A stretch of DNA of 63,974 bases, the filler included, from Catajapyx aquilonaris (taxonomy: Eukaryota): NCBI GenBank assembly GCA_000934665.2. It is 3 parts of 3 records of this genome, joined end to end, with 100 filler letters (N's around TTAATTAATTAA, not from the genome) between each part and the next. Parts side by side here need not be neighbours in the genome. Positions count along the whole stretch, not along the records: positions 43,249 to 63,974 come from KZ539497.1; 2 more parts are not named here. One strand, 5' to 3'. The notes under the pieces are model-generated. The model made no database searches. It saw only the letters and a program-made list of their open reading frames with translations, and was not told where the DNA came from. Of the stretch, positions 11,531 through 63,974 are shown piece after piece; position 1 is the first letter of the stretch, and each line of letters starts with the position of its first letter. The position numbers and the translations under genes are program-made.

Positions 11531-12449
11531 TCCTGACAATAATACTACGGCTTCAGTCATATACCATAAATATGCGCGACCCAGTCTTCTAATGCTGCTG
11601 CTTCTCCTGTAACCACCTATCACTCTTGGGCTGCCTGCTCTCAGCTTATAAATATTGATTGCCATTATCTCTTTATTGGCGCATTGCCCAGAAATGCATG
11701 GGAAGTATGTTTTGAAATGTGCCTGAATATGACACTATCACCCATTCCTAATTATGGTTGGAGGGATGGCATATTGTGTGAATGTGACAGTAAAATTGAA
11801 TGCGGAATGGGGGTAAGGTGATATTTCTGCATATAGCGATCTATTCTACATCCTCACTTAGACCTTCCTTATCAATGGATCACACTCACTGTCAGTATGG
11901 ATTGTATATTAATTAGACAGACAACATACCTGACTCCTTCCCCACCATTCCATCCTAAATTAAAACTTGTGATGTGATGAATATGTTACTTTTAAAACAT
12001 TCCCCTAACTGCCATCATCACTAGGTAATTCATCATCACTTGTATGAGGCAGACCCCAGACAGTGAAACCTGTCATGTGGTCCTTATCATTGCTCACAAC
12101 AATGGCAAAAGTCGCAGCAATATTGGACAGCACAAGGGATTAGGCAGATGGGCGTCTGCTTCTCTTTTGAGTTTGAAATCATGTGATGGCAGGCTGAGGA
12201 CTGCCACCACTTCTGCCAGAAAAGGGATCAATTCTAGCATCCTTGAGGGAATCTTATTATGAACAGCAATGTATCACACGGTATCTGATAACCTGTAGGC
12301 TAAATATCCTTCCTACATTGTTATTGTATGGTAGGTCTATGTGTTTAGGTGTGATATTGATTGAGGAGCATTATGAAGTTTTTTGCCTGTTTCATATTGG
12401 TGGAAAATATTATATACCATTATCATCACACTTGCATTTAAATTCACAG

Positions 12450-12658
12450 ATGTGGTGGAGACGTGTTCACAGCTACACTCCCGAAACAACACCCTCGTCA
12501 ACACCCTGAAACAGGCACGCAGTGAAAAGCGTGAGCTCCAGAAAGTAGTAGCCAGGTTGAGGGCTGAAAACAATGAGCTACGGACGGAACATTATTTCCT
12601 ACGGAAGGAATTGATTAATGCCCGGCAGACACACCAGATTGAGATTGAGGAAATTGCA
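12450..12658 (+). CDS. Coiled-coil exon of an unknown, possibly Shugoshin-like gene (visible exon 1)
   Basis: Acceptor ttcacag|AT and donor GCA|gtaagt. Encodes DVVETCSQLHSRNNTLVNTLKQARSEKRELQKVVARLRAENNELRTEHYFLRKELINARQTHQIEIEEIA; phase 0 joins 17147. Confidence 0.6.
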
Positions 12659-12737
12659 GTAAGTATTGCACAACTGTAGTTTTAAACTTCATGCTAACAT
12701 TTTTTAAAATTGGCTCCGCCATAGATGTCTTCAATCA

Positions 12738-13053: not shown

Positions 13054-13207
13054 GGAACATATAATAATAATAAGAATAATTCATTCATTCATAACATCAC
13101 AGCATAATCCTAGAAATGGGGTAGCCAGCGACTACTAGTTTCTGCCTAGCCGTCTCATATGTCCATTACAATGACTCTTCTGGTGACTGGTCACGCGAGG
13201 CCACGCA

Positions 13208-13208
<1 letters not shown>

Positions 13209-13289
<81 letters not shown>
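13209..13289. repeat. (AAT)n microsatellite
   Basis: Direct reading of a pure TAA/AAT run; source of the poly-Y and poly-L ORFs. Confidence 0.95.
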
Positions 13290-13659
13290 CGGGAAATAGG
13301 TCTGAGGTTAAGGCTTCCTTCGCTCCGGCCAGTAGAGGGGACGTCCCTGGCGGGATCGATGAGGTGCAAGGGTGGTGCCATACACGTCGGCGTGGCCAGG
13401 GCATCCGGAGTAGTGGCTGGNGGCTTGATTTGGCGAAATACCGTATTGGATAGTGTAATATTTAAATTTAATATTCAGAGTCTGTCGTCTGATATGGGCA
13501 GGGGTGGGGGGACAGGACGGGTTGTTTATTATAGGTTTATTTTCACAAGTTTTAATTATTAGTTCATATGTTGGGTTATTAGCTTGTGTCTCCCCTCACC
13601 GCTGACTACCCCTCATAGGGAAATGTGGTGATGATGATGATGATAATGATGATGATGAT

Positions 13660-14280
<621 letters not shown>

Positions 14281-29795: not shown

Positions 29796-29863
29796 GTCAG
29801 CCTTTTCATTTTTAATGTAGATTAAAATGGTGTGTAATATTGTACCGTTTTTTGGGGGAGCAG

Positions 29864-30195
29864 ACAAATATCGAACACCCAGTGGAAAAAGTTTGTCGAA
29901 AACGGGAAACCAGCTCTAGCCCAGGCACAGGCACAGGCATACCAACAACAACAACAGCAACAGCAACAACCACCAGTGCAAGAGTTCCGTCGAGGAAAGT
30001 CAGACCTCGAGTCTATACGAAACCGTGAGAAGAGGAACAGCGTGGGTTCCAGTTACGCCAATGGCCCACCAGTCAACGGCCCATTGGGTCTTCCTCAAGG
30101 GCCACAATCAGCCCTTCCCAAGAAGCAGGACAAGAGGACACCAAATGCTGCTGTGAACGTGCCTCAGCAGCAAGACCCTAGGAAGAAGGGCATGG
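29864..30195 (+). CDS. sick: Neuron navigator exon (polyQ-containing)
   Basis: In phase with neighbours; QISNTQWKKFVENG...AQAQAYQQQQQQQQQPPVQEFRRGKSDLES...KKGM; donor G|gtgagt. Confidence 0.75.
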
Positions 30196-30362
30196 GTGAG
30201 TTACACTGATAGCTGAGGGAATATATCTTCTTACATAATAAAGCAGAAAGTTTGTCTGCATGTCCGGGCTGCCTAACTCACTTTGGGACTACTAAAACTT
30301 TGTTGATGGAGGAAAATGTCTGAAAACTGCTGCACTTGTTAAATATATGGAAACTGTTGCAG

Positions 30363-31169
30363 GTGTGAAGGATGACTTGAACAAGGACGACAAGCGGTCC
30401 CCTAAAGTTCCGTCAACGTCGATGGCTCAACCACCAATGTCAGTGCCATCAGGGTCGTCGGGTCACTCCTCAAGAGTCAATGGTGATTCGCGTCGTATGC
30501 ATGCGGCAAGGGGCGTCCCTGCCAGTTTCGGATATGTGAAGAGACCCACTAGCGCCGGGCCAGTTTGTAAGAATGGGGGCGGCCCCGGGGCGAACGGCCC
30601 AACCCCAAAGAGCAGAGAAAATCCGGAGGAGATGCGGACAGCCCAGGTGTCCGGTGTTCCCAGAGTGGACACCGCTAAAGGTGAACGGAGCTTGGAAAGA
30701 CCCAGGACGAAAGTGAAGGTCAGCGGGGGCACCCAGACCACATCTGACCTTCTCGGCCCCGGGGCGGCCCACCATCCGACGCCTCACCACTCGGAACCGG
30801 ACTACTCCAGACACGGCTACCCACCGCAGCAGAACGCTCCTCCTCAGTACAAGTCCTACTCTCTGACTGCCCCGAGCGCGTCCCAACTGTCCCAGAACGT
30901 GCGCGACCGTCTCCTGGGGTCACAGAGCCTACCCAAGTCTTCCTCTGCTGCCGGGGCCGACTATGCCGGGTTCTACGCCGGGTTCCACCACCAACACCCT
31001 GGCGGTGGGTACTCCCGAGAGAGGAGCCCAAGGCTGCCCAAACCCACCGACGGGTCACTCAGCGACACTGCGTACTCCAACTACGCCGAGCTGCACGGGT
31101 ACAACCGAAGCAGTCCGTACGCATGGGTCAGACACAGCCCCAGTTATGCAGCCGGAGCATCTGCAGGAG
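30363..31169 (+). CDS. sick: Neuron navigator large exon
   Basis: Open 807-bp exon with ASFGYVKRP, KVKVSGGTQT, LGSQSLPK and DGSLSDT motifs typical of sickie/NAV; donor G|gtacgt. Confidence 0.9.
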
Positions 31170-31528
31170 GTACGTCTGGTTCGTTGTTTTTGTAATAAGC
31201 ATTCTGATTGGTCAGCCGCACATTTTTGTTACCGCGACGCTTCCTATTGGCCCAGTTGTGCGCCTGCGCAATGGTGTGGAGGCAGCGCCTCTGGTGAGTG
31301 AGTGGGTGGGGGAGTATTAAAATCCTTCGTTGTTTCACCAAGCCTTCCGATTGGCCTCCGATCTGCTCCTGCAGTCCTGCGCAATGGGAGGAACTATCAA
31401 TTTGCTTGCTGTCGGGCTGAAAATCACATAGCAGTGTAGAGAAGTGATGAGGTCTACATAATCAACCGCTATTCTTAACATATAAAAGACAACGACGGCC
31501 ATATGTATAAACAAAGCGTGTGTTTCAG

Positions 31529-31700
31529 GTAACCTGATTGAAGCCGACAGCGTCGAGTCTCTCAGCTCGGCTTCGTCGTCTTTGGCAGCCCAGCTCCAGC
31601 ATGCTCGTGCTGGTAGTTTGACCCACGCTCGTCTGATGATGCACCAGCGTGAGATGAGTGCTTCACCCAGTCCCAGACTCAACAGAAGCAATAGTATCAG
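31529..31700 (+). CDS. sick: Neuron navigator exon
   Basis: NLIEADSVESLSSASSSLAAQLQHARAGSLTHARLMMHQREMSASPSPRLNRSNSIR; AG/GT boundaries in phase. Confidence 0.85.
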
Positions 31701-33140
31701 GTGAGAGTGATGTAACCGACTGTATAAACATGTGCATCTGTGTTGCGTGAATTAGTACTGGTCTACCAACGAGGATTGTCAAATTTCATACCCATTCTTC
31801 TGAGTCGTAACAGTGTCCGTTGGGTGACCAGTAAACAGTATATTGTCGAGTTCATATACGAGCCTTATACCAACATGTTACACCCTACCTTTCTGTGCAG
31901 CCATTTCCGAGAGAGGACCTTCCCAAGGTATAGTGCACAAGTGGATGTCCCCCCTCATGCACTTTTCCAGACATACGCCTTGCTTTTTTGGAAGAAGTAA
32001 AAATATGCACAATCTAGTCCGGACGCTAAAACTGCACCCTTTCAGTAGATTTTTAAAATGCTTATATGTCATGCAAATAGCAGGCATTGTTTTAATTACA
32101 TGATACATTTAAGGAAATTGTCACATTTTCCCCCAAACATTGCGACACCAATGTTCGTCTGCATGGAATTTTTGCTCATCCGCCCCCCTGGCTCTGTATG
32201 TGTGGTTTTCCTACAGTCATAAGCTTTGATCTCCCTTTGCTTGCTTTGCATGTTACATGTGTTTTTCATACGTGTCGGAATACTATTGGAGGAATTTTGC
32301 TCGAGGGGTTGGAACGAGGTTATAATCGATTAGAAGCAAGCTCCGAGCTCCACTGCAAACTTAATTAATAACGCAATTGTTTAAATTTTTTAGCACTTTC
32401 GTTTAGACATGTAAAATATTTCTCTGACTGCACCTTGCCCGAGGGCCGCGTACACTTTCAAATAGGATAACAAAAGTATTACAGTTCCAAGTTAGCCTCG
32501 CAGAACTGAGTCAATAGCATCAGTACCTAATTACGGTCCCACGGAAATTGAATTTCCCCTTCCAGCCCGAAAGGGTCACGTGAGGGATGCAGGTAGTTAT
32601 GGAACTAGCAGGGTCAGTTCCGACTTGAATTTTTTAACAGAGGAACCGGCTCCAAGTTTGTTTACGAGATCAATACATGTGCAGCGCTGTAACATTCCAG
32701 AAAACGCGCATTACAGCGTCTAAAAATAACATGGCTATTTAATTCCGATTGACCTGCTTCCTGTCCCACCTGGGAATGCAAATTACATAAAGCAGGTTAA
32801 CTGCTATCAAATTACAGCATCGAAGCGCAACAGGTATTGTTGGCAATAAATCACCTGTAAGTTTACATGATATAGCCGCGTGCTAGTTACGTCGTTACTT
32901 GTTAGTTTCCCCAACATTTTTCACATGTTTTGGGAGACAATCTGCATTTCTGAGTCATCCTGAAAATTTGTGATGCGTCTGGCGCAGAATCCCCCAGATG
33001 ATGGCGTCCCGCGTGCCTCATCGATTTCACTTAGGGAAGGAAGAAAGGGGCATGAAAAGGATTAAATGGCCGTCCCCCGCTTTAGTGCACTTTTGAATAT
33101 TTCAAAAAAAAATATGAAAATTATTGGCGTTAATTTACAG

Positions 33141-33424
33141 GTCGACTAAATCTGAGAAGCTGTATCCGTCGATGCTTCAACGGACTGACGACCTGGATGG
33201 ATACTACAGCACGCCTTTGTCGCTCTCGACCGCTGGGCATCGCGACGGACCGCATTCGTCGCAGCCAACCAGTCCTACACCCAGTCAGGTATCACAAGGC
33301 ACGGCGTCATCCAGGTTCAATTTTGCACCAATCAGTTCATCAGCATCGAACCATGGCTTGTGTCGTCTCAGCATGACTCCATACACTGGGATTCTGGCTA
33401 AAATACCTTCCAAAGAGGATGATG
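33141..33424 (+). CDS. sick: Neuron navigator exon
   Basis: STKSEKLYPSMLQR...SQPTSPTPS...SKEDD; ttacag| and |gtaagt. Confidence 0.9.
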
Positions 33425-33489
33425 GTAAGTTAGTTAAATCGTACGAATTCGATGTGAAATTACCTTTTTTCCTACCCCCCGAAAAACAG

Positions 33490-33641
33490 TGCACGGTTCG
33501 TCGTTGTCGTTGGTGTCGACAACCTCATCGTTGTACAGCACCCAGGAGGAAAAGCAGGCCCACGAGATACGAAAACTGCGACGAGAATTGGGAGAAGCGC
33601 AAGAGAAGGTTCACACACTTACCAGCCAGCTTTCAACCAAC
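33490..33641 (+). CDS. sick: Neuron navigator exon (start of coiled coil)
   Basis: VHGSSLSLVSTTSSLYSTQEEKQAHEIRKLRRELGEAQEKVHTLTSQLSTN is a strongly conserved NAV block; donor |gtgagt. Confidence 0.95.
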
Positions 33642-36600
33642 GTGAGTACCTCGTTTTACATAATTTTCGTCCTGTTTCGTGCCTCGGTATGTCCAACCTG
33701 AGGAAACTCGGCAATGGATTGTTTTAGACAAGGAAAGTAGGTCGTCGTGTTGCAGTTTCATAGCTTCAACGAACGTCAAGATAAGGGGTCAGGAGCGCCC
33801 ATTTAGAGAGAACGGGGGTCTTGTAATCCGCAGTAAAGTACAGTGCGTTGTAAGTCATTGGGAATAAAGGGCCTGGAGGACGGTTACGCGACGTTTTTTA
33901 CTGGAAGCGAAAGAATTGTCGGAAGAAGTCGATGCCCTGCTATCAAAAGGCTTGGGCCATGTGTTTTGAGTATAGAGTTGCGCTACTGTATACTATTGAT
34001 TGTCCCAGCGGCTTACAGAGTGTCTCAAAAGTGGGTGCAAGCAGTTGAACACCCTGTGTTAAGCCTTATTGGCAAATATTTTTTTTTGCAATTGAATTGA
34101 AAAGTGCTAAAGTGCATAGTATCCGGGAGTCAAGGCGATACTTCTTTAGTGTGTCTCTCACGGACTTTTCGGGGGGTAAGAACAACAGGATTCAGAGTCT
34201 GTCGATTTTTCCTCTCTTTTCCTCGAAGATTGATTTCGGTCGGTCGGTTTCTTCAGCGAAACTCCCAGTTTACTTAAGGATCACCGGCATAAAATCCCAG
34301 GGCTGCCGGAGGGGTATTGATCCGAAGGAAAGGCAACGAGGAAATTCCCTGGGTTGCGAGCGATTTTGTTGATGTTTCCGAGTGTTTCCACGCAGATCTT
34401 AGAATATTGTTGTAAGATGTCATTTTGTATATATAGTGAAAAGTTTGTCCAGAAAGCGGAAATATGGCAACCCTGCTTTTAGGGGTGCCGTTTGTTCTTG
34501 GTCGAACTATATATTGCCACAAACTGAGAGCCACAGCCATTGGCATCCCTGTTATTCCACCCTGAAGGAGGCAACAAATTAAATCAAACGTCACATTGGA
34601 AAGACAAGGAAAGGAGCCTCCAAGTCAGTCCATGGGTTTTCCGGGAGTGCAATTTGGCCCGGATCCAGACCCCGCATCTCTTGGTGAAGAGAACAATGCC
34701 GAAAATAGTCCTCCTTCCTCCGGTTCTTGATAGCTCCAAAGAGCCTCCTGCACTTGAGGAGGGCCACCGGAATATTGAAAGGAGTGGAGTTAAAGCAGCT
34801 GCATAGAATATGAAGGAGATGGATGATGGATAGATAAAAAAAGAGGGACTTTCTCTTGTGGTTGCTGCTGGAAGAAGGTGTGGCTTCTGCAGGAAGCATA
34901 ATATAGGTGGGGTTCGTAGCTCTGGAAGAGAAAACCTTTTTGTTTGATGGTCTCAGTCGGTATTACAGGCCAGTAAGTTCAGCTCACGTCCGCCTAGTTC
35001 TCATCTGGTTTCATTACGGCTGGAAGTGCAGGCAGGAACGACTTCAAATACCTGATCTGATGACGAAATGTCCTGGACTTATTAAAGTTAGGGCTCCTAA
35101 ATAGAATCGAGGATCGAATATTGTAGTATATAATAATTATTAAAAATCCTTCGTTGTATGACCGAGGCTTCTGCGCAATGGGAGAAGGCAGCGCCTCTGG
35201 TGGATGGCTATGTAAAATGTCAGATGTTCACAGCACATAACAAAAAAAAATCAAATATAAAATGAACGGATTTGGCTGCACTGGGGACACAGAAAGGAAT
35301 GTAATATCAGAGGAGATTAAGGCATAAACTCGGTAATTAAGGTATTTTCCGCGAAAGTGGTCATGTCAAAAAGGCGGAGTCTCGAGAGAGAAATGAGCGT
35401 AATTTGTTTTGCTTGGAAGAAGCTCATCATATGCCGCATGTAGTTTCCTTGTAATGAGACTACTTTTTTTTTATTCGAGTCATGGTTGCATCTTGATTAT
35501 AATTTTTTAAATCATCCGGATACAATAATCATGTCAGAGCCAAGCTGTGGATTCTTCCGGAGGGGGCTAAGAATCTAATTAAACATGCTCTTCTTCCTGG
35601 CAAGATTAGTTACACTTTGACAGCCAACTTCACCGTTTAATTGCTACGTCACTACCGGGCACTTTTTTTCCCCCCATCTAGAGCAACAATGAGGTTTTGA
35701 CATCGTCACTATTTGGTGAGGTTTTCAGTGACTCACTGACGTACAGCATTTTGATGCTTCTTGTTGTAAATGAATTTGACTGCTTTTAAAGTGGAAAGTT
35801 CAAATAAACTCCTTAGATATTTTTAAAGTAATTAATGTGGTTCGTTAACGATGACGGAAAAATATAAGTGAACCTGAAAAATGCTTTTCATCCAAAAGCA
35901 GTGAACAACTACGCAAAATTATTTAAAGGAGTAATTTGAAAAATTTGCATTCTTTTACGTTGAAGTGTAGGCAGATTTCAGCTCATTGCACAAAATTTTG
36001 CAAGGACTCTTTGATGCATTCAGGTATACAAAGCTAGGCTATCTGGTGCTCATATCGGCGTATGTAGGTGGGAGAAATTGCATGGGGGGTATTCTTGTTT
36101 AGTTTCGATCCATTAGTTCGATTTTCCGCATGACTAAAGTTCCCCACTTCATTTCACGGTGAGTAATGACTGAATGAGTGCCGGAAATTAAGGGAGTTTC
36201 CTTCAACGCTATTTTTTTCTATAGAAGCTGTGCTGCTCTGTAATCATATTCTGAATTCGCAGAGCTTGGAAAGAAAATATCACGAAAATGGGGGGAATTT
36301 CGCTTCTTCCAAAATTTTCAACGCCTCAATCTAGAAGCGCTTCTAAAAATAATCAAACGGATCCGACATTCAGAATGAGGAAAAGTTCATTTGCCCGCCT
36401 CTGGAGACTGTCTTCTCCGAGAACTTTAATTAAGTGAAGAGGCGGGATTAATTCTAGAAGATGCCGGAACTGGGTACGATAAAAAAAAGAAGCCAACGGT
36501 AACTTAAGATGATGAGTCATCCGGATTTTCAACCAAAAATTCTTTTTGGTACTTGCAATAATTGCATCCCTATAGGACATGCCATGTGATGCTTTTCGAT

Positions 36601-43248: not shown

Positions 43249-43787
43249 CGCTCAACTGCGAGCGTCTGTCTGACAAGTTTGGGCACAGCGATCGCAGCGA
43301 CATTTTTCGGGGCGAGCGAACGGAACGCCTGTGTGACAGACCCATGACCCATGCGCGCGAAGCGAGCGGGCCGACGAAGCGCACGGAACGCCTGTGTGAC
43401 AGACCCATAAGCCCTGTTGCCTGACAGGGTGGGCGGGTGGGTGGAGGAGAGGAGGAGGAAGAGGCAAAGGTCTTGAGCAACTACGGCTGGGGAAGGTCCC
43501 TACAAATACAAATACAAATACAAATACAAATAAATAATTATTTTTCGGCATTTAGACTTTAAAAAGTAAAGTTTTCGGGCTTTTCCCTTAATGACATGCA
43601 GGTTTAGCATCAGTGCGAAAGTTTTCAGCACTCTCAGAGGTGTGTAAGTGGGTTAAATAGCCGTGACATACATACAAATATATAGCCTACATACCAACAA
43701 ATATTGACGTTTATATAATATAGAGATAGTAATAGCAATTTACAAAAAATATATCGCGTACAAGTGTCAGCACTGCCTAAATTCAAT

Positions 43788-43847
<60 letters not shown>

Positions 43848-43886
43848 ATAATAATAATAATAATAATAATAATATTAATAATAATA
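43788..43886. repeat. Compound (CTA)n(ATA)n microsatellite in the kinesin intron
   Basis: Direct reading. Confidence 0.95.
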
Positions 43887-43893
43887 AAAATAC

Positions 43894-43903
43894 AAAAGGA
43901 TAT
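43894..43903 (-). other. U12-type (minor spliceosome) AT-AC 5' splice site
   Basis: Minus strand reads ...CGA CCA TTC|ATATCCTTTT, matching the U12 donor consensus RTATCCTTT exactly where kinesin similarity ends. Confidence 0.65.
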
Positions 43904-43948
43904 GAATGGTCGCACTCGGACAGCCACTTTTACATTTTCTTCAGGCAT
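43904..43948 (-). CDS. First coding exon of a kinesin motor protein (kinesin-3/KIF28-like N-terminus)
   Basis: MPEENVKVAVRVRPF is the canonical first beta-strand of a kinesin motor domain. Preceded by a plausible 87-bp GT-AG 5'-UTR intron (44062-43976) in a CpG-rich region. Confidence 0.8.
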
Positions 43949-46582
43949 GTTGACCAAGTGGATATTCGCCGCCCTCTGTCATGTGATACCACATTTGTCT
44001 TTATACCATTTTGAAAATACTAAACAGGATCTAGCGGTAATAAATAGATGTTATTATCTTACCTGGTGGCAGCCGGACAAGAAATATGACGCACAATCGA
44101 AATGAAGGACGGCGGCAACTAACGTAAGAAGCTCACCCGGAGTGTTTGCATGATCACAGCTACCATCGTGTTTATAAATTCCCATGGCGACGTTAATATT
44201 TAATGTCTTTCCTTCAGTGTCTCCTGCTCAGAAAGGACCTCCTTGTGGAGGTGTAAAAATTATGACCTACGAAAGAAACCGTGATGCCATTCTGGCAGTT
44301 GCATATTAATAATTTTGTTGACGTAATATTCGTTAATGATACACTGCCGTTGATCACAAACGATGTGATATCTGGGCAGATGACAACTGAGTCGCGGGAA
44401 AATTCTAGATTGAATATGTTAGGGGTTAATCAGGTAACTGAATGTTCCTCTATAGTATAGGAAGTTTCATTTCAGGTAGTCCTACTGCTACTGAGCCATA
44501 AGTACTACATTTCGAGCGAAAAATAATAATGAGGGAATTGAACGTTTATCGATCAGAAAATCCCCCCCCCCCCNCCAAAAAAAAGAGCAAGTTGACCAAT
44601 GCGAGGGATAGCAGGACGAGAAAAAAGTTAGTTGAACGTTCCTCCGTCTGCAGAAATCATACACAACCTATTGTACCGTAGCTGAAAAGAAATTGACCAA
44701 CCAAACATAATTATATAGACTACGAGTGGTTTTCTCTTCTTATACTTTGAATTTAACAATTTTCAAGCCAGTTGCATATACATAACAGAAAAAATTATAC
44801 AGAACCCTCGTCAGTCAAAGTTAACTCGGCAAATATTAACAGATTAGTCTATAATTATGCTATTTCGCTCTTGGGAGCCTAGAAATGTTGCTTATAAAAA
44901 CTCATTGGGAAATGAAGAGATAATGTTGCGATAGTAGTCAAAAATTTCAGGGATATTACACAAAGGGAGCAGTGTAGGTCAGTTTAACCTTTATTGCGTT
45001 GGTACCCGTACCCCCCAAGGGGAGCCCGGGTTACCCATGTCTTAAACATGCAAGCATCATTGTGAAAAAATCGGAACATTCTTACATACAATAATCTGCC
45101 TTGCAGGAGTATCGGGTATTTTCATAATTACAGTGTAATACCTATTGGAGCGGATAGTATAGACAGCAGAATCAGTGTTGATCGATAGTTTTTTTTTCAC
45201 TCTTATACTCTTACTAGCAGGGCGCAGGGGTTCTTCGCACGGGGATAGATAAATGAAAAAAGTTTGTAAAACCTGCACATACTGTATAGTGAGCTAAGTC
45301 AGAGGGAGTGTAAATGCTATATGCTCACGGGCTTCGAACATGTCACATGAGAAAGACCAGTATGTTGTGGCCCAAATAAGGGTGTGAAGCAGCTCCAGTA
45401 TTTTTCATGAAATAATTATGTAATGTAGGCCTATATTAAATCTGACAAACAGTTGCTGGGCCTGATACATCAAAGTAGGCCTACTTGAGGTTATAAAGGG
45501 AGCATTGTGTCCGTTTTTGAAATGTGATCAAAAAGTAGCATAATAGTTTCCGAGTAGTAAGGACAAACAGGATTCGAAGTTGTAATTATCTGAAGCAGTG
45601 TAGGCTACATCTAAGTGTATAGACCACAGCACGACACGACAATGACCAACATACGACAATTCCAAGTAAGGCAGGACATCTGGGCCTAACCCTGATGCAT
45701 ATATACTATATCTTTCCATGCAGGCATACCTGATGGGTTCAGAGACTTGCAGAACACAAATTAATATTTGAAGAGTGGACATGATAAAGGGGGTAAGTGC
45801 CAAAAATATTTTTAAATATTTTTAGATTATGCACTATACGAAACCTCCAAATGCCCCAGATGGCTCATTGGATAGCTGATAGGACTGTGCAGATGCCTTT
45901 TATTTAATTACATATAGGTCAGCAGCGTGGCATGATAACACTAGCACATGGTGGTAATTTGACTTTTAGGCTGCCTGTCACATTATTGACTAGATCCATA
46001 AGGCCTCATTTATTACACTAGCAGCACCTCAGACCGCCTCAGACATATACAGTATGTTGTCTGCAGACCACATGCAGAGGGTCAAAACATCCTATACCCA
46101 GTCCCTGTAAGACTCCCAATGTGTTGATGAGATGCTGAAATGCAATGCTACAGATGCTACTGTGGCCTGACATATGCATCAAAGTAATGCTCACCACATG
46201 CCAACGAACCCTTGACATCCTTCACAATTCAGAACAATAAAGAAGTCAAATGCTGCAACTAGATTTTAATTTTCCATCTATTATACTGTACAATGTATGA
46301 TACATTATGCTGTACAGGAAAAGGTAAGAATAGTTTCATATTACATACAACTTCAAAATATGACAAAATATTTACACTCTGTATTTTGGGTTGTGTGTGC
46401 TAAGACCTGAAATGCAGAGAGATCAGCAGCCATAATCTGGTTAAAATTGAGTTACACATTGTGTAATATAGTCCTTGAATTGTATTTTCTGATACTCCAG
46501 TCAGTTTTCTGCTAAAGCATTTAGGGACAGTTGTATAAAAGCAAGTGAGGGAAAGTCTCCCATTATGCATATTTAGAGTATA

Positions 46583-48544: not shown

Positions 48545-49188
48545 TGTACACATAATTTTGTGATCTACCACCACCTTCCCTACATTAAAAATTATACATA
48601 AAAAGCAGACCATTGCAGATCATTTTCACAATGTTGTTTTGAATATTTCCAGCCCTAACATGACATGACAAAGGTACACACAAATCAAATCAACTCAATT
48701 CCAATGTACAGTCAAATGACAGACAAATGTCCACATATACAAAGTTCAAAATTGGTATACAGTGAGGAAGTTTATCGGAAACAAGCCAGGTAAATGCAAA
48801 TGTGTCACGAGGCATCACAGAAATTAGTCATTGGGTCAGCAGTATATTACCAATTTTAATTACACATAGCATGCAGCAAGAACTGCATACAGTGTATGCC
48901 ATGTTATTCAGACAGGAAATTCAGATACCACGTTGTTCTTAATAATAAAGGTATAATAGCAATTCCAGTGACTGATTATCAGGTGGAAATAATTGCTATT
49001 AAACTTTCTTGTCTTAAATTTCAAGCATTCAGGTGATAACCTTCATAATACAGTATGTCTCCACAAGATAAATCTGCAAGTTACAGCTGTAATCTCCTTC
49101 ACATGCCTTGATTTCCAAGTCAGGCAAGAAATATTTAGCAACACTCAGTGGAGTGAGTTAAAGAGCTGCGTACAGTGCCGGACATTAA

Positions 49189-51054
49189 CCCCTTCGGCTC
49201 CAGCCACGGGTATTCAACTAGTTTATGACAAGGTCCAGTAATTACCTTTCCTGGGCCATTGAAGGCCCCCNNNNNNNNNNNNNNNNNNNNNNNNNNNNNN
49301 NNNNNNNNNNNNNNNNNNNNNNNNNNNNNNNNNNNNNNNNNNNNNNNNNNNNNNNNNNNNNNNNNNNNNNNNNNNNNNNNNNNNNNNNNNNNNNNNNNNN
49401 NNNNNNNNNNNNNNNNNNNNNNNNNNNNNNNNNNNNNNNNNNNNNNNNNNNNNNNNNNNNNNNNNNNNNNNNNNNNNGGGGTTGAAGGTCACACGAGCTT
49501 AGATGAAAGTGGGAGATTTGAATGGGTGTGTATTTGATAAAATTGGTAGCACTTTTTCCAAAAAAATCATGAATTAGTAATTTCTAATACTATTTCAAAC
49601 AGTCCTGTATATCGTTGCGGTCCGGACAAAATTACGTCGTGGCCCGCCAGTTGTACAGCCCTGATCTAGGCGATGAGAACTCGACCACCAGGTACCAGCT
49701 ATACCTCAATCGCCCAGATTCTTTTTGCTTCCGTTCCACTTGCAAATAAGGACAAGATATTTTACAAATAATTAATAACAGGTATACTTTTACATTCATG
49801 CTCTACACAATGCATGTGTTGGAAACAATTTTACTCGTATAGAAGTCCGCAAATTAATTCCCAAAAAGATCGTCACACAGTATACCCGCTATATTTCCAC
49901 CTAGATTTTCCCTCCTGTTCAACTTACAAGTACTCTGAAGGTAAGGGCAAGATATTTTACAAATAGTAACAGCTGTACTTAGCCGTTCATGCAAAACACA
50001 ACGTATACATTGGAAACAATTTTCCTTGGCTATAAGTCTGTATATTAATTTCCAAAAATATCGCTGTAAAACAAAACAAGTGGTTATTAACCTTTTCAAG
50101 CCTCCGCAACCCTTTGTAGACAGTTTGTTCTTGTCGCACCCCCTATACCAGGGGTGATTGATTACATTCACAGTTAGACTAAGTCCAGCCGGCGCTGGTG
50201 GTCTGGTGGTTAGCGCGCTCGCCTCTAGACCCAAAGTTGTGCGTTCGAACCCGGCCAAGGTCGGTGACTTTTCTGCAGGTGGTAGAAAAGTGAGAGTGCG
50301 CCTTCCTTCGGAAGTAAAGCTGTCGGTCCCATGTGCTTGTGACATTGCGTGAGTGCACGTTAACGATCCCCAGAGTGACCAAATTTCCAGGAGGAGGGCC
50401 ACCCCCTGGCGTCGGTGTTGAGCCTTAGCAGCAGAAATAGGCAGATGTTAAGCCCTGCACTGATATGTTAGCGCACCCCCAGGTGAGCCACCTCACACCC
50501 CCTAGGGGTGTGGGCACCCCAGGTTATGAACCGCTGCTGTAAAAGATGAAAATCCAAGTACTGCAGGCCATCTATTAGGCTGATTTAATTATGAAATACG
50601 TTAAAATATACAGAATAACAATCTTGAGAACCATGCCAAAAGACTTTGGTGAATCATTGTACTTTCGGAGAAATAAATTAATACTTTTGTGCGACTTGCC
50701 TGTCACTTGGATTACTACCAAATTTATACTTACTTCTCGAAAAGTACGACGATTGTTATTCAGTATATTTTAACGTATTTCATAATTAAATCAGCCTAAC
50801 AGGTGGCCAGTAGTACTTGGATTTTCATCTTTTATAGTGATCTTTTTGGAAATTAATTTAGGGAGGGAGAATTGTTTCCAACACATCCATAGTGTTTTCC
50901 ACGAACGGGTAAATATAGCTGTTATTATTTGTAAAATACCTTGTTAGTATCTTCAGCGCATGTGTAAGCAGAAAACTAGGTGATGCCGGGTATAGCCGGT
51001 ACTGTGCGATCGAGTTCTCATCGCCTAGATTCTAGGTGGCTGGGGCCGAAAGGG
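49189..51054. mobile_element. Non-autonomous piggyBac-like element (contains a 207-N gap)
   Basis: TTAA|CCCCTTCGGCTCCAGCCAC...GTGGCTGGGGCCGAAAGGG|TTAA; internal inverted repeats at 49665-49703 / 50989-51029 and a hairpin at ~50540-50833. Confidence 0.75.
50188..50465 (+). mobile_element. tRNA-derived SINE with Nin/Ruka-like core
   Basis: Box A TGGTCTGGTGG, box B GTTCGAACC, core GTAAAGCTGTCGGTCCC...GCACGTTAACGATCCCCAG...CAAATTTCC. Confidence 0.75.
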
Positions 51055-58333: not shown

Positions 58334-59398
58334 TATTTATCACCAAGAAAAAGCCACTAAAACACGTTAACTTGAGGAACATGGGAGAAAGTGATGTCAG
58401 ACATACAGTACATTCCAATTGGAATGTTCAGAGTGACAGGTGAATTTTTTTTCACTTTTTAGCTGTTATTTCTGAGCAGTTCCTTTGGAACAGTGACTTC
58501 TAGCAGTTATCAAAAGTATTAGCTGCTAATATTAGGCCAAATTGAAACATGCATCCAAGTTTGTATTTGCAATGAATTTCTGATTGCGAATTGCCCAACG
58601 GTGGCATTGAATATCAACAACTGAACCCATTTTTTGCAGGCCAGAGCCCCCTGCAGGCACTTAAAAAGATGGGTCCACACAACCTGATATTAGCAGGTAG
58701 CATATGTGGTAACCTCTTAAGTAACTGCTGGAAAATAAATGCTTAAAAGTAAGCAGTATAGTGACAAAAAATCATTAACTTCTACAGACATTTCAATTGG
58801 AACAAACTGCATAGAATCATAGATACTATAGTGTAAATCACCTCAGTACATGCATACTCGTCAGAAGCCGATAAAAATAAAATCAGCGTAATTCTCCAAG
58901 TGAGGTAGTTCAGTCTACAAAATATTACAACACACTTGATTAACCAACTGCTGGCTGGGCAACAGTTGTTAGTAACATGGGTTTGTCAAACACCTGGAAA
59001 ATATACACTGAATTCCTGACAGCTGTTACTTGTGGCTGGTGATAAAGCACTTTTTCAATGGAGCCTTGTGATTTGCTAGGTCACCAAAAATGCTGAGAAT
59101 GCCCAATAATGACTAAAATGATACGCCTGCTTTATTATGCCTTGGCAAAGTGTACTTCAATTCATAACATTTCTTAGAAGCTAATGCATTTTCATGCCGT
59201 AGTTCATAATGAAAACTGACCCACCAAATCCTGCATTTCTTCAAACATGCAAAATTTTCGCCTTAAATTTCCATTATGCCTAATAAATGAAGTGGCAACC
59301 CAGTAACTTTCACAATAATTACAAGCCACCCAACACTTATAACTATTTTGTCTTCAAAAACCTTATGGACCCAAATACACCACCTCATTACCACCGCC

Positions 59399-60331
59399 TT
59401 ACAGCTGCGTTCCATCTATTGTGGACATCAGCCCGCTGCTTTTCAGGTCCGAAACACCGTCAGCTCTGCTGCTTGTCACCAGACCCTCCTCCTCAACTGT
59501 AAACAATGTGAAATGACATGGGGTTGTCACCCCAAGTCTGTTAGGTGGGTGTTCTGAATCACTCACTATCGGGACTGGGCTCTGTGGAGATTTGTCCTCG
59601 CATGTCGAAGAATGGCAACAGCTACTCGTGCACTGGGATGCTGTGGTGGCACTGCTAGTACTGTCACTTTCCGAGTCGACCGAGGAGACCGAGGGAGTGA
59701 TGGTGCGACAGCAATTTAACTGCAGCCGCTGCACTTGCTCCTCCTTCCGCAAGCGTTCATGCTCCTCTTTCCGCAAGCGCTCATTTTCCTCCATCAACCG
59801 CCTTATCTCCTCCTGGAAAATGCGTATCTTCTCTGCCATGTCTGGGTCCATCCTCATCTCCCCTCGACCCACCTCATCCTCCGAGTCAGTCCCTTCCTGG
59901 TTATGTTGCTGGGCTCTCACCATACGTAGCTGTTTCTCCATCTCATCCACCCTGTCCTCCATCTGAATATATTCTTGGATCAAGTCCGCCTTGCTCATGG
60001 AACTCAACCGCTCCGCATTCACATGGTCATACGTGTTGGAAAACTCCTTCGACTGGAATTCCCTGTTTCGAGGTGAGAAGTAGTGCCAGTAATCCTCCTC
60101 CGACTCAACACTAGTTACCGACACCACCTCTTCGGGGCTGAGTGGCGAGTCCAGCCGGTACGATTTATGCTGTTCCATCAAGAACTGAGTCGTGTTGTCC
60201 GGTGCTCCTTCCCTGTCCGGATGGTACCGTCTTCTTTTCGGTTTACCCCGTCTATTTTTCTTCCTCTTCCGCGGTTCTCCCGACTTAAAACTCCCGCTAC
60301 TTGAGGGCATCGTATTCAGTGCAGCTGACAT
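59399..60331 (-). CDS. Hexim: HEXIM-family P-TEFb regulator, divergent (PDNT instead of PYNT)
   Basis: Basic tract RKRKKNRRGKPKRRR, APDNTTQFLME, acidic region, and cyclin T-binding coiled coil EFQSKEFSNTYDHVNAERLSSMSKADLIQEYIQMEDRV...AEKIRIFQEEIRRLMEENERLRKE. First ATG at 60331; probable 83-bp GT-AG upstream intron 60445-60363. Confidence 0.9.
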   Translation of the reverse strand: MSAALNTMPSSSGSFKSGEPRKRKKNRRGKPKRRRYHPDREGAPDNTTQFLMEQHKSYRLDSPLSPEEVVSVTSVESEEDYWHYFSPRNREFQSKEFSNTYDHVNAERLSSMSKADLIQEYIQMEDRVDEMEKQLRMVRAQQHNQEGTDSEDEVGRGEMRMDPDMAEKIRIFQEEIRRLMEENERLRKEEHERLRKEEQVQRLQLNCCRTITPSVSSVDSESDSTSSATTASQCTSSCCHSSTCEDKSPQSPVPIVSDSEHPPNRLGVTTPCHFTLFTVEEEGLVTSSRADGVSDLKSSGLMSTIDGTQL

Positions 60332-63321
60332 ACCCCCAATCTCCGCCAATGGCACTCCCGATCTGAAATGACGTACTTGGGTGAGTGGGAGGGTGGTAGG
60401 GTGGGAGAGAGTGCGCGAGAGGCTGCTAGGTAGCTGCCTGCATACCTGTCAGAACCTACGGTTACAACGTCCCCGCCTGGAATGACCCCAAACGAGGAGC
60501 TGCGACTCCTTTACTTTGCCCACTCACCCCTTTAGCCCTCCGCCAACCAAAGGAAATAGGTCTTTGTTAGCATCACCTTTGCGGCCTGTGGATGTTATGC
60601 ACTCATTTTGACCACAGATGCACAACATTACGTGTTAACAATTTAGAATATGGTTAGAAATCAGAACGAGGCAAGGTTAGGTATCTTCCGGAATCATGCG
60701 GATTGATACATGCAAAATGCTTCCTTTTAACACCGACCTACTGTTTATATGGGGAGGCCAGTTCTCCTCACATGCCAATGAATCACACTTGCGGCGCTGT
60801 AACCAGGGGCAATCTCTTGTACCGTACTCACTGTCAGTAGTGTATATTGTAGTATTGAGCAGTATACTGACGTCGTGACGTGAATTGGCTAGTGAAGCAG
60901 GGCTGTGGTCACACCTAAATAGTTCTATATGCTGATTTTGGGCTTTACGAACAATAAGTGCATAGCAATGTTCTTTCTCAAGAAAGAATGACACGAGTCT
61001 GCATGACGAGATGGCAGCAATTTTTGTGCAATTTTTGTGTTTTGTGCTTGTTTATGTGTTGGCTATCCTGGGCGCTGCCAGGTAACCGGGGTTGTTTATT
61101 TGGCGTTATTCTGGAATCCACAGCACTGTGATCACGGGTCACGGTCGCGGTCCCACGGCCCCAGGGTCCCATGGCCGCACGGTCGGGGTCTTGGGAGGCG
61201 GGCGGGAGTGGGAGGTGCGTTGCGTTGTCTGGTGTATGTGAAAAGGTGTTTATTTGGGGTGATTGGGGGAAGGGGGGCGGATGAGGCAATGGCCACGACC
61301 CGGGCAACACTCCCCCGGGGGGATCATGGCAAAACTGTATAAATAATGCACATTTTCCAACTTTTCAGGGGAAAAATAACATTTTCGTTTGATCTGCTGC
61401 CATCCCGGTTCAAGTGACCCTATCAGCCACCAAATTCTAGTACACTATGCCAGCTGTCTCTAATTGCAACAGGAAAGGGGACCCCAAAGAGCTTAATACT
61501 AGGAAGAGTGGAAAAAACGGTTTCCAAGCGTCGCCACTTTTTGGCCAGTTGTTTAGTCAACGTGTTTGGCTGTCGGCCACTACGCGGCGCCACCGTCGAG
61601 TGCTGTCGTATTGAATTTCAATACACTGTGTTGATTTAATATCAAGAGGCACATAATTAAGAGTTATAAATCTAAAATCTGACCAATATGAGGTCGTATG
61701 GGGTTAAGGAACTTATATTGGACCCGAAACTGATATTCTGCGCAGCTGGCCACCCTGCACGTAACAATACAAATAATCACCTCGTTGCTTAGAAATCACG
61801 TTCGAATTTCGAAATTGAACAAGTTCCTTTGCCGGCATAGTGTGGCGTAGACGTTCGGGTGCCGCGTGCTACTACTGCTGTTCGCGCACAGGGTCACGGA
61901 TCACATTCTTTTCGTTACCAAAGGGCCCTCCACGGTTCTCGAGTTCACGGGAAGAAGAACAAGCCCGTCCCGCCACGACAAGATGGCAGCGGGGGGTATA
62001 TCTTCCTGTCATCAGTGTCATCAAGCTCTTGGTGTCATGTGACCATGTTCAGCATCATTTATATCAGTGTGTACCTTGGTGTGTATTGTATAGAGCAGAG
62101 TGTGGGATTGTAGTGGAAATCAATAAACTTCTGGCAAATAATATTTGCTTTTCGTGATGGTTTTTTATTCACAGGTCTTCTGCAACGTGTTTTGTCGGCA
62201 ATTTGACGGGAGTATACTAGTACTTATGACTTATTTCCAACCTCTGGGGCTTTTATTGCCATATTTCCGGCACTGCCTCGATCTACCGTATTGTACAATA
62301 CAGTATCGAGTTTGGCTGTCGATCGCCAGGTGGCAGGTCAGTCGATTGGAGACACGGTTGCTATGTTACCAGCTGTTTTTTCCACTCTTCCTAGTATTAA
62401 GCTCTTTGGGGGACCCGTTCTAACATGTTGGGCCGTTGATTTTATGTTTTTTTTGTTCTTGTACGGTCGGGAACAGGTACGAATCGTACGATCATCGCGG
62501 CTTGAAAAATTAGACCTAATGCAGGCTTAGAAAAAAAAGGCGTGATATAGCGAGGGGGAATAAATACTGCCGGGTGCGCAAGGAGGGGGCATTTTCTGGA
62601 GGATTCCGGGTCCCTTGTTCATCTGTAGGATTTATTTGCATATCGTCTTTCGCATAATTTTTTTTTGCAATTAATTGATGGGAGATTCCACGACAGAGCA
62701 TGCGAAATAAAACTCAATGTATGTTCACCCCCAATTTCTTGATCTCAATCAAATTTGGTAGGATAATTTATCGTCCATAAGGATAATAATATAAATCATT
62801 TTAAAAATTTAAACGTTTTAAATTTTAAGGGTCATTAGGGCACGTGCAATCAGTGGCTGATCCAGAAGTTTTTTCTGAGGGGGGGAGGGGGACAAGAGTA
62901 TAGTTGGGGGGTGGGCGTCTTCGGGCCCACATTTGTCGCTGACAGTGGTGCACGTAATATCTCCTGGGGAGGGGTGCAGCCGTGGAGGGCCCGCCGCAGG
63001 CGATAATTTTTCGGTTCAAGGTCACAACCCTTCCTCGCCACCCCCAATTTGGGGCATAACGGGGCCCAAATCGGAAAAGAAGAGGGTTTTTGCGAGTTTC
63101 TCCCCCGTTTTTTTTTCTTCTTATTTTTTTCCGTTTTTATCCCTCTGGGGAGCCCACCAAGAAGTAGAAGTGGTTTAACCCGATGAGTTGCTTCCGTATA
63201 GTCACCTTTTTGTTAAAGGGAGAGGCTTTTGGGTAAGGGTGGGAGAATGCAGTGGCCCTGTTGGCCACATTGTGTTATTGTTGCGTAACAACAAGAATAG
63301 TGTTCAGTCTAGAATAAAAGG

Positions 63322-63663
63322 TTAGAGAGAACTGACGTGTTCTGGAACTCGGGCACTGCCTCGTCTGGCCATGGTCCCTGCTGGTGGCAAGGGGTCCACT
63401 ACAATATTATCTATAATAAGATTACGCTTCTGCTCACCCTTCACGCGGATGTGGAGACTTGACACGTCCACTCCTTGAACCATGGCTTGATCGAACAGAA
63501 CTTCCTGACATTTCTGGAGGAAGGAGGGTCGACTGTTGTTGATGTACTCCTCTAGGTCATGCGGGAAGCGTCTGTGGACACTCCTGATGGCTTCGGCTAT
63601 GGTAGCGACTAGGTGGAACAGACTAGCGGTCTCCAGCGACTCGGGTTGGAGGTAAACAGGCAT
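63322..63663 (-). CDS. Uncharacterised 113-aa ORF preceded by a small 5' intron
   Basis: ATG two bases after a good acceptor (ttgtgttgcag|CCATG); donor actcag|gtgagc gives a 68-bp intron (63733-63666); GC-rich, protein-like composition. Confidence 0.5.
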   Translation of the reverse strand: MPVYLQPESLETASLFHLVATIAEAIRSVHRRFPHDLEEYINNSRPSFLQKCQEVLFDQAMVQGVDVSSLHIRVKGEQKRNLIIDNIVVDPLPPAGTMARRGSARVPEHVSSL

Positions 63664-63974
63664 GGCTGCAACACAACAAAAGCCTCGACATATATTATTT
63701 TGACCCTCTTAATGCGTCACGAACACTGCTCACCTGAGTATGCTGAAAGGTTATTCTGGTATAGAGATGGATGTGATGCGATATGTTATGATTGCATCAC
63801 TTTATAGTCCAAAACGACTTGGGTGATTAATTTGGAGGGAATTACAGTCTGGTTCTTCCGGAGTTTTAAATATGAGTTCGTGTACATTGCTCGTATCTAT
63901 AGAATAATTTACAACAATGGCCAGGGGCGCCAGTACGACACGGGACATCGACAGATCAGGCAGCATATACTACA

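Follow-up and report, generated by a model that had tools for sequence, protein, structure and literature searches.

The minus strand of the window, by which we mean the whole stretch of Catajapyx aquilonaris DNA under analysis (63,974 nucleotides), carries a gene for a homolog of HEXIM, a protein that restrains the transcription-elongation kinase P-TEFb. Its reading frame is unbroken from ATG to TAA and encodes 310 amino acids. The product was matched by the Pfam HEXIM family (PF15313) with an E-value of 9.3e-20 and a score of 71.7 bits (cut-off, 29), in an alignment that pairs residues 22-131 with positions 17-142 of the 142 positions of the profile. In a phmmer search, residues 90-181 matched the solved cyclin-T-binding coiled coil of HEXIM1 (2gd7_A, E 1.5e-7), the entry 3s9g_A matched to the same HEXIM1 coiled-coil region (E 4.5e-6), and the ESM Atlas placed the protein with arthropod HEXIM clusters at 0.94. 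The initial annotation of this DNA had recognized a HEXIM homolog with an open frame and an intact coiled coil, and all three points are borne out.

The individual parts of the protein are listed with their coordinates in table 1. The basic Arg/Lys-rich tract, PRKRKKNRRGKPKRRR, is preceded by an N-terminus of 19 residues and aligns with the consensus RKRKKxRRGKPKKR of the relatives; K22, K25, R27, and R28 were invariant or nearly so across this alignment. A role of the tract in 7SK binding is presumed by analogy with the human and fly proteins, as these are described in passages of PMC12901311 and PMC3384314. In the predicted cyclin-T-binding/dimerization region, the alignment with 2gd7_A sets F92, F97, T100, and Y101 opposite human F262, F267, T270, and Y271 (numbering as found in parts of PMC6838758 and 10.1101/2023.02.19.529146), and F92, F97, and Y101 were invariant or 90% conserved among the relatives. 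An AlphaFold2 model built from a 24-row alignment had a mean pLDDT of 61 and exhibited helices at residues 87-111, 114-146, and 163-209, with pLDDT values of about 87-94 in the blocks 101-140 and 161-200, and the N-terminal third and the tail were modeled as disordered, as expected of a HEXIM. When this model was compared with the PDB using Foldseek, no match was obtained at E 0.001 or better.

Elsewhere in the window, a sickie/neuron navigator (NAV2-like) gene was recognized. A query with its ORF at 30296-31192 returned 48 matches; the seven best came from malacostracan crustaceans (40-42% identity), and polyneopteran insects came next. The ORF at 43637-43978 on the minus strand (about 43918) begins with MPEENVKVAVRVRPF and is a possible first exon of a gene for a kinesin motor; it had no Pfam match, and a scan of the window for further motifs of the motor revealed none. 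The homology search with the ORF at 63325-63708 was without match. A Pfam scan of 148 of the 194 window ORFs of at least 75 aa, with the 46 overlapping ones left out, gave for the rest of the window only three weak hits below the cut-offs. Weak matches of this kind were seen for CENPU (E 3.9e-5, 12377-12676, plus strand) and TANGO6_N (E 6.2e-4, 13678-14085, minus strand), either of which may be an exon of a real gene. An Rfam scan at gathering scores yielded no matches (0) and hence no 7SK in the window. A long trinucleotide repeat at 13125-13562 on the plus strand would encode, in one of its frames, ~27 consecutive Asn. There is also an assembly gap at 49135-49583, where the run of N shows as X in two ORFs; the window contains 387 N in total.

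Sequence support and probable transcript

Five public sequencing runs contain the stretch. Four of them are DNA-like and derive from one sample, possibly the source of the assembly itself, and contigs from two of these (X1 and X4) were identical to the assembly across HEXIM. The fifth run (X5) belongs to another sample and another study; the kind of run is not on record, and we infer its RNA nature from a splice-like joint. Five contig pieces from X5 cover 58800-59309, 59368-59824, and 59858-60362, leaving holes at 59310-59367 and 59825-59857, and they contain no other letters (0) and no indel relative to the assembly. This coverage takes in the GAC codon of the inhibitory motif, the short linker upstream of it, and the 24-nt repeat of the coiled coil. 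A single X5 contig over 60130-60362, again with 0 other letters, spans both the GAC codon and the short linker, and its identity with the assembly through these positions argues against an assembly error. The codon and the deletion reported by the initial annotation are accordingly confirmed in contigs of a second sample.

One X5 contig joins position 60362 to 60446 and thereby skips 83 nt with GT..AG ends on the strand of the gene; the X1 and X4 DNA contigs run straight across 60363-60445. The short side of this joint comprises 23 letters, fewer than the 31 required by the rule of the tool. We read the joint as a spliced intron in the 5' UTR, and hence as a hint of an mRNA, so that the HEXIM gene is probably transcribed. 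With the intron removed, an in-frame stop is found 32 codons 5' of the ATG, with no in-frame ATG in between. As the verified part of exon 1 (23 nt) does not reach as far as this stop, an upstream coding exon is formally possible. Over the linker, the genome and the mRNA-like contig are colinear, which indicates that the segment missing there is not an unrecognized exon. The 5' UTR intron also holds a CT-rich 8-bp repeat at 60385-60407. Other X1 and X4 contigs match 60373-60405 with three differences, which points to a dispersed low-complexity element.

Table 1. Positions of the features described in the window, with residue numbers of the HEXIM protein where they apply
Feature	Position	Strand	Remarks
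Sickie/neuron navigator (NAV2-like) gene	29838-33645	(+)	large low-complexity exons
3' UTR, at least this long	58800..59398	(-)	X5 contigs, hole at 59310-59367
HEXIM coding sequence	59399..60331	(-)	310 codons and stop; single coding exon
Ser/Cys-rich disordered tail, residues 210-310	59402..59704	(-)	pLDDT <50 over most
Cyclin-T-binding/dimerization region (predicted), residues 90-209, two long helices	59705..60064	(-)	2gd7_A match and AlphaFold2
Tandem 24-nt duplication, ERLRKEEH/ERLRKEEQ, in the second coiled-coil segment	59736..59783	(-)	
Shortened, weakly acidic region, residues 53-89	60065..60175	(-)	
Inhibitory peptide APDNTTQFLM, residues 43-52	60176..60205	(-)	
GAC codon, Asp45, column of human Tyr203	60197..60199	(-)	unchanged in contigs of the second sample
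Linker YHPDREG, 7 residues (36-42)	60206..60226	(-)	median 37 in Tyr-bearing rows
Basic Arg/Lys-rich tract, residues 20-35	60227..60274	(-)	presumed 7SK-binding region
Putative 5' UTR intron, 83 nt, GT..AG	60363..60445	(-)	one X5 contig joint
Covered part of 5' UTR exon 1	60446..60468	(-)	X5 contig; no X5 cover upstream of 60468

The inhibitory peptide and its natural variation

It is from mutants of the human protein that the tyrosine of the inhibitory PYNT motif has come to be regarded as essential. In Catajapyx HEXIM, the codons CCG GAC AAC ACG at 60202-60191 encode P44, D45, N46, and T47, as the initial annotation had read them. The Pro, Asn, and Thr of the motif are kept and the Tyr is replaced by Asp45, and the subsequent residues T48-Q49-F50-L51-M52 preserve the TQFLM segment along with its conserved Phe (human Phe208).

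A profile search through 1.84 billion representatives recovered 776 family members, the best 150 of which were aligned with hmmalign. The Pro, the Asn, and the Phe of TQF were each found in all 149 of the 149 aligned rows, and all three are present in Catajapyx HEXIM. The Thr column of the motif exhibited T in 117, S in 30, and N in 2 of these 149 representatives. At the Tyr column, the best 150 of the 776 members comprised Y in 110, F in 29, N in 6, S in 2, and C, H, and a gap in one each. The union of all sets, which includes Catajapyx HEXIM and amounts to 256 rows (252 of them scored), contained Y 184, F 32, N 16, V 11, G 2, D 2, S 2, I 1, C 1, H 1, and 4 gaps. Tyrosine is thus missing from 68 of the 252 scored rows and any aromatic residue from 36 of the 252 (N, V, G, S, C, H, I, or D instead), shares that describe arthropod-like HEXIMs and not all animals, because the sets were ordered by their similarity to an arthropod query and there is redundancy within the set of 120. 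Hence, the strict conservation of the PYNT tyrosine, on which the initial annotation had relied, does not extend to the arthropods.

Among the 120 matches listed, the motif reads PYNT in 81, PNNT in 13, PVNT in 11, PFNT in 6, and LYNT, PGNT, and PDNT in 2 each; PINT and HPNT (the latter reflecting a local gap) occur once, and one match has none. Asp at the Tyr site was found in 0 of the 150 representatives and, over all sets, only in Catajapyx HEXIM, in P0099, and in the cluster of P0100 (P0100 and P0256-P0258), with PDNT in P0099 and in four of the four members of the cluster. P0033 and P0058 combine a canonical linker with PNNT and are placed amid Tyr-bearing polyneopteran-like rows. That they retain the full canonical linker indicates that loss of the Tyr does not require the linker to change.

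The nearest database proteins were only 43-47% identical to Catajapyx HEXIM, and among the matches listed (120 of 128) none exceeded 47%. On a quick maximum-likelihood tree of 120 rows and 358 columns, the motif column included, 42 of the 114 inner branches were unresolved; the state of the site changed between Tyr and non-Tyr at least 5 times, and its residue at least 11 times. A clade of 12 rows (support 100), including Thrips palmi and Megalurothrips, carried PNNT in all scored rows, and a clade of 18 rows (support 98), including a eukprot copepod-like protein, was devoid of Tyr, with F, V, G, D, or I at the site. Catajapyx HEXIM had no secure place on this tree: it joined P0051/P0067 at a support of 82, on a branch of 0.8 and with a long-branch warning, and it fell outside the thrips PNNT clade. 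P0099 and P0100 are 44% identical to each other and each 34-38% identical to Catajapyx HEXIM. Both sit in the 18-row clade without Tyr, and the Asp therefore probably arose separately there. Judging by these alignments, the Tyr position stands out as the only site of the inhibitory peptide at which arthropods tolerate change.

Linker, acidic region, coiled coil, and tail

As had been noticed initially, only YHPDREG separates the KPKRRR of the basic tract from the inhibitory motif. Measured in hmmalign columns from the last Arg column of the basic tract to the Ala of the motif, this 7-residue linker was the shortest among the full-length rows, followed by those of P0101 (8) and P0016 (10); fewer residues were counted only in two N-terminally cut fragments and two unaligned rows. 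It takes the place of a helix-bearing linker that usually has about 30-37 residues, and no helix was modeled in it by AlphaFold2. The initial annotation had described a canonical segment of ~30 aa between the basic region and PYNT as absent from this protein. The absence holds, but the segment is not universal, since the linker signature W..E..R..RAN was present as a strict pattern in 23 of 120 rows and some other rows are short as well. For a link between a non-aromatic residue and a short linker, only three independent pairs were available. From the aligned sequences, we regard the linker deletion as real and as the extreme of the family.

The acidic region also appears to be altered. The SSPEDEE patch of the relatives reads FSPRNRE in Catajapyx HEXIM, a partial charge reversal, and the region was estimated at ~42 residues, its acidic residues being in net excess by 5, compared with medians of 59 and 12 in the PYNT rows; the estimate comes from regex matching, a heuristic that did not work for every row. 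Of 37 columns conserved at a level of at least 80%, 27 are kept, which equals the 5th percentile of the other rows (median 33); 23 of these 255 rows score as low or lower. The losses in Catajapyx HEXIM cluster in the acidic patch.

Two further features of the initial annotation required revision. The coiled-coil duplication, described there as one of 21 bp, consists instead of two adjacent 24-nt copies (59736-59759 and 59760-59783) that are 92% identical. The relatives carry an imperfect ENExLRxENExLR repeat at the same site, and the Catajapyx block adds one residue only. The Ser/Cys-rich tail is present as described but is not an added extension: it aligns with the SSVDSESDS block of most arthropod HEXIMs, which makes it ancestral.

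Functional interpretation and comparison with known HEXIM proteins

We favor the reading that the gene encodes a genuine, streamlined HEXIM ortholog of its crustacean-like arthropod lineage, most likely still a 7SK-dependent partner of P-TEFb, and assign it a probability of roughly 0.6. The invariant residues of the peptide are kept, and the one changed residue occupies a site that has changed repeatedly among arthropods; this combination favors a working ortholog over a decoy, a paralog, or an artifact. We observed the gene itself, the agreement of its sequence between two samples, the way in which residues are conserved, and how the Tyr site varies in nature; from these we infer all binding and inhibition by Catajapyx HEXIM. 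In such an ortholog, the basic tract would bind 7SK, the coiled-coil domain would dimerize and bind cyclin T, and the invariant P-x-N-T-x-Q-F residues would dock on CDK9, possibly with a weaker inhibition as the result or with a CDK9 that has co-evolved. Lacking the linker helix and having a reduced acidic patch, the protein would probably operate with a simplified form of the RNA-gated self-masking known from human HEXIM1. Counting against a working ortholog are the behavior of Y203D in the human protein, the rarity of Asp, the low score of 27/37, the lost helix, and the altered patch, and to judge from these features a weakened or lost inhibition is possible.

The initial annotation had instead proposed a decoy, that is, a non-inhibitory HEXIM that dimerizes and binds 7SK and/or cyclin T without blocking the active site of CDK9, so that control of P-TEFb would be weakened or rewired. 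Its remark that Tyr-to-Asp substitutions serve to disable human HEXIM1 is correct. HEXIM1(Y203D) appears in PMC8812531 as a CDK9-binding-defective mutant, and Y203D/T205D is stated in a passage of PMC13717190 to interact with neither P-TEFb nor 7SK. The decoy also gains from the coincidence of a rare Asp with the loss of the linker helix, the charge reversal in the acidic patch, and the low conservation score. These human mutants, however, speak for the context of human CDK9 only. A motif deprived of its target is expected to drift as a whole, yet the other nine residues of the Catajapyx peptide follow the family consensus, which disfavors the decoy. Moreover, non-aromatic residues recur at the Tyr site in several lineages at least, including the whole thrips clade, in which each named species shows one HEXIM among the matches listed. 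With the Tyr naturally variable, PDNT present in two other lineages, and the rest of the peptide preserved, the decoy is not supported, and we regard it as unlikely.

A diverged paralog that had acquired a partial or new role, beside a canonical Tyr-bearing HEXIM at another locus, would agree with the long branch, the insecure position on the tree, and a number of conserved columns at the low end of the family; vertebrates, moreover, have two HEXIM genes, according to the part of the preprint 10.1101/2023.02.19.529146 that deals with them. Nevertheless, a tblastn search of the 64-kb window with seven HEXIM queries recovered this locus and no second HEXIM, and the named arthropods appear with one HEXIM each among the matches listed; we hold a paralog to be unlikely rather than contradicted. 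As for an error of sequencing or assembly at the GAC codon or in the linker, or else a decaying pseudogene, the four concordant DNA runs share one sample, from which the assembly itself may derive, and are therefore not independent witnesses. The contigs of the other sample are nonetheless free of differing letters and indels there. A pseudogene is further opposed by the 310 open codons, by the retention, the Tyr site apart, of every residue that is invariant in the family, and by the splice-like joint in the 5' UTR, which suggests an mRNA. An error or a pseudogene is highly improbable.

For the gene itself, a diverged but working HEXIM remains the most probable and also the ordinary outcome. 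A bolder version, which we put forward as a doubtful conjecture from the sequence, is that the 7SK snRNP would hold P-TEFb without fully shutting it off, or that CDK9 would have co-evolved another pocket; taken with the lost linker helix and the weakened acidic patch, this would make a minimal, constitutively unmasked HEXIM. If this were true, the protein would offer a test, set up by nature, of the mechanism by which the PYNT peptide acts as an inhibitor of the kinase. In our comparison, the truly invariant residues of the family are the P, the N, and the Phe of TQF, and the Tyr site varies (F, N, V, G, S, C, H, I, and D) across many arthropod lineages. Together, these natural variants provide a set in which the contributions of the tyrosine, the linker helix, and the acidic patch could be tested, and Catajapyx HEXIM is the most stripped-down example among them. 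Our literature search found no paper that pairs HEXIM with PDNT, PFNT, PNNT, or PVNT, although the supplement of the preprint 10.1101/2023.02.19.529146 may already show such variation. The text of that preprint describes the key Thr, Phe, and Tyr as absent from many HEXIM and HEXIM-like sequences of choanoflagellates, ichthyosporeans, and other eukaryotes.

Human HEXIM1 and HEXIM2 exhibit the same order of parts, namely, a basic tract, the inhibitory peptide (human 202-PYNTTQFLM-210), an acidic region, and a coiled coil, as laid out in portions of PMC12901311 and PMC6838758. Compared with them, Catajapyx HEXIM keeps nine of the ten residues of APYNTTQFLM as well as the equivalents of F262, F267, T270, and Y271, and it differs by the Asp in place of Tyr203, by a 7-residue linker devoid of the helix of residues 171-194, and by a weaker acidic region. 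Its N-terminus spans ~19 residues versus ~150 in human HEXIM1, and its coiled coil is followed by a Ser-rich tail of the arthropod type, unlike in the human proteins. The human helix at residues 171-194 belongs to a self-masking network around PYNT that is released upon 7SK binding, according to a section of PMC12901311; a review from 2023 (PMC10083321) notes that structural information on the binding between HEXIM1 and P-TEFb is lacking. Drosophila dHEXIM (CG3508), an arthropod HEXIM that has been studied functionally, likewise has a basic motif of the KHRR type, an inhibitory motif, and a box of the SDVYER type, for which Catajapyx HEXIM has SNTYDH. All of KHRR, PYNT, and SDVYER are kept in the fly protein, as reported in a passage of PMC3384314, so that it retains PYNT where Catajapyx HEXIM has PDNT.

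The engineered human HEXIM1 Y203D carries the same change at the same motif position as Asp45. Y203D, T205D, PYND, and PDND are laboratory mutants of human HEXIM1 that were assayed with human P-TEFb, and several of the human mutants also alter Thr205, a residue kept in Catajapyx HEXIM (parts of PMC8812531, PMC13717190, PMC6838758, and PMC1183248). In the respective passages, T205D loses P-TEFb (PMC6838758), and PYND is impaired in vivo while retaining 7SK binding in vitro (PMC1183248). Among natural proteins, the best matches, at 43-47%, are those of thrips (P0006 from Thrips palmi, P0013 from Megalurothrips usitatus, and ten further rows), which are likewise without the Tyr and have a non-canonical linker. 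They carry Asn, however, and not Asp, and their linkers extend over 25-51 residues by a regex heuristic, compared with 7 in Catajapyx HEXIM. Closest in the motif itself are P0099 and the P0100 cluster, which share the same APDNT and have short linkers of ~12-14 residues.
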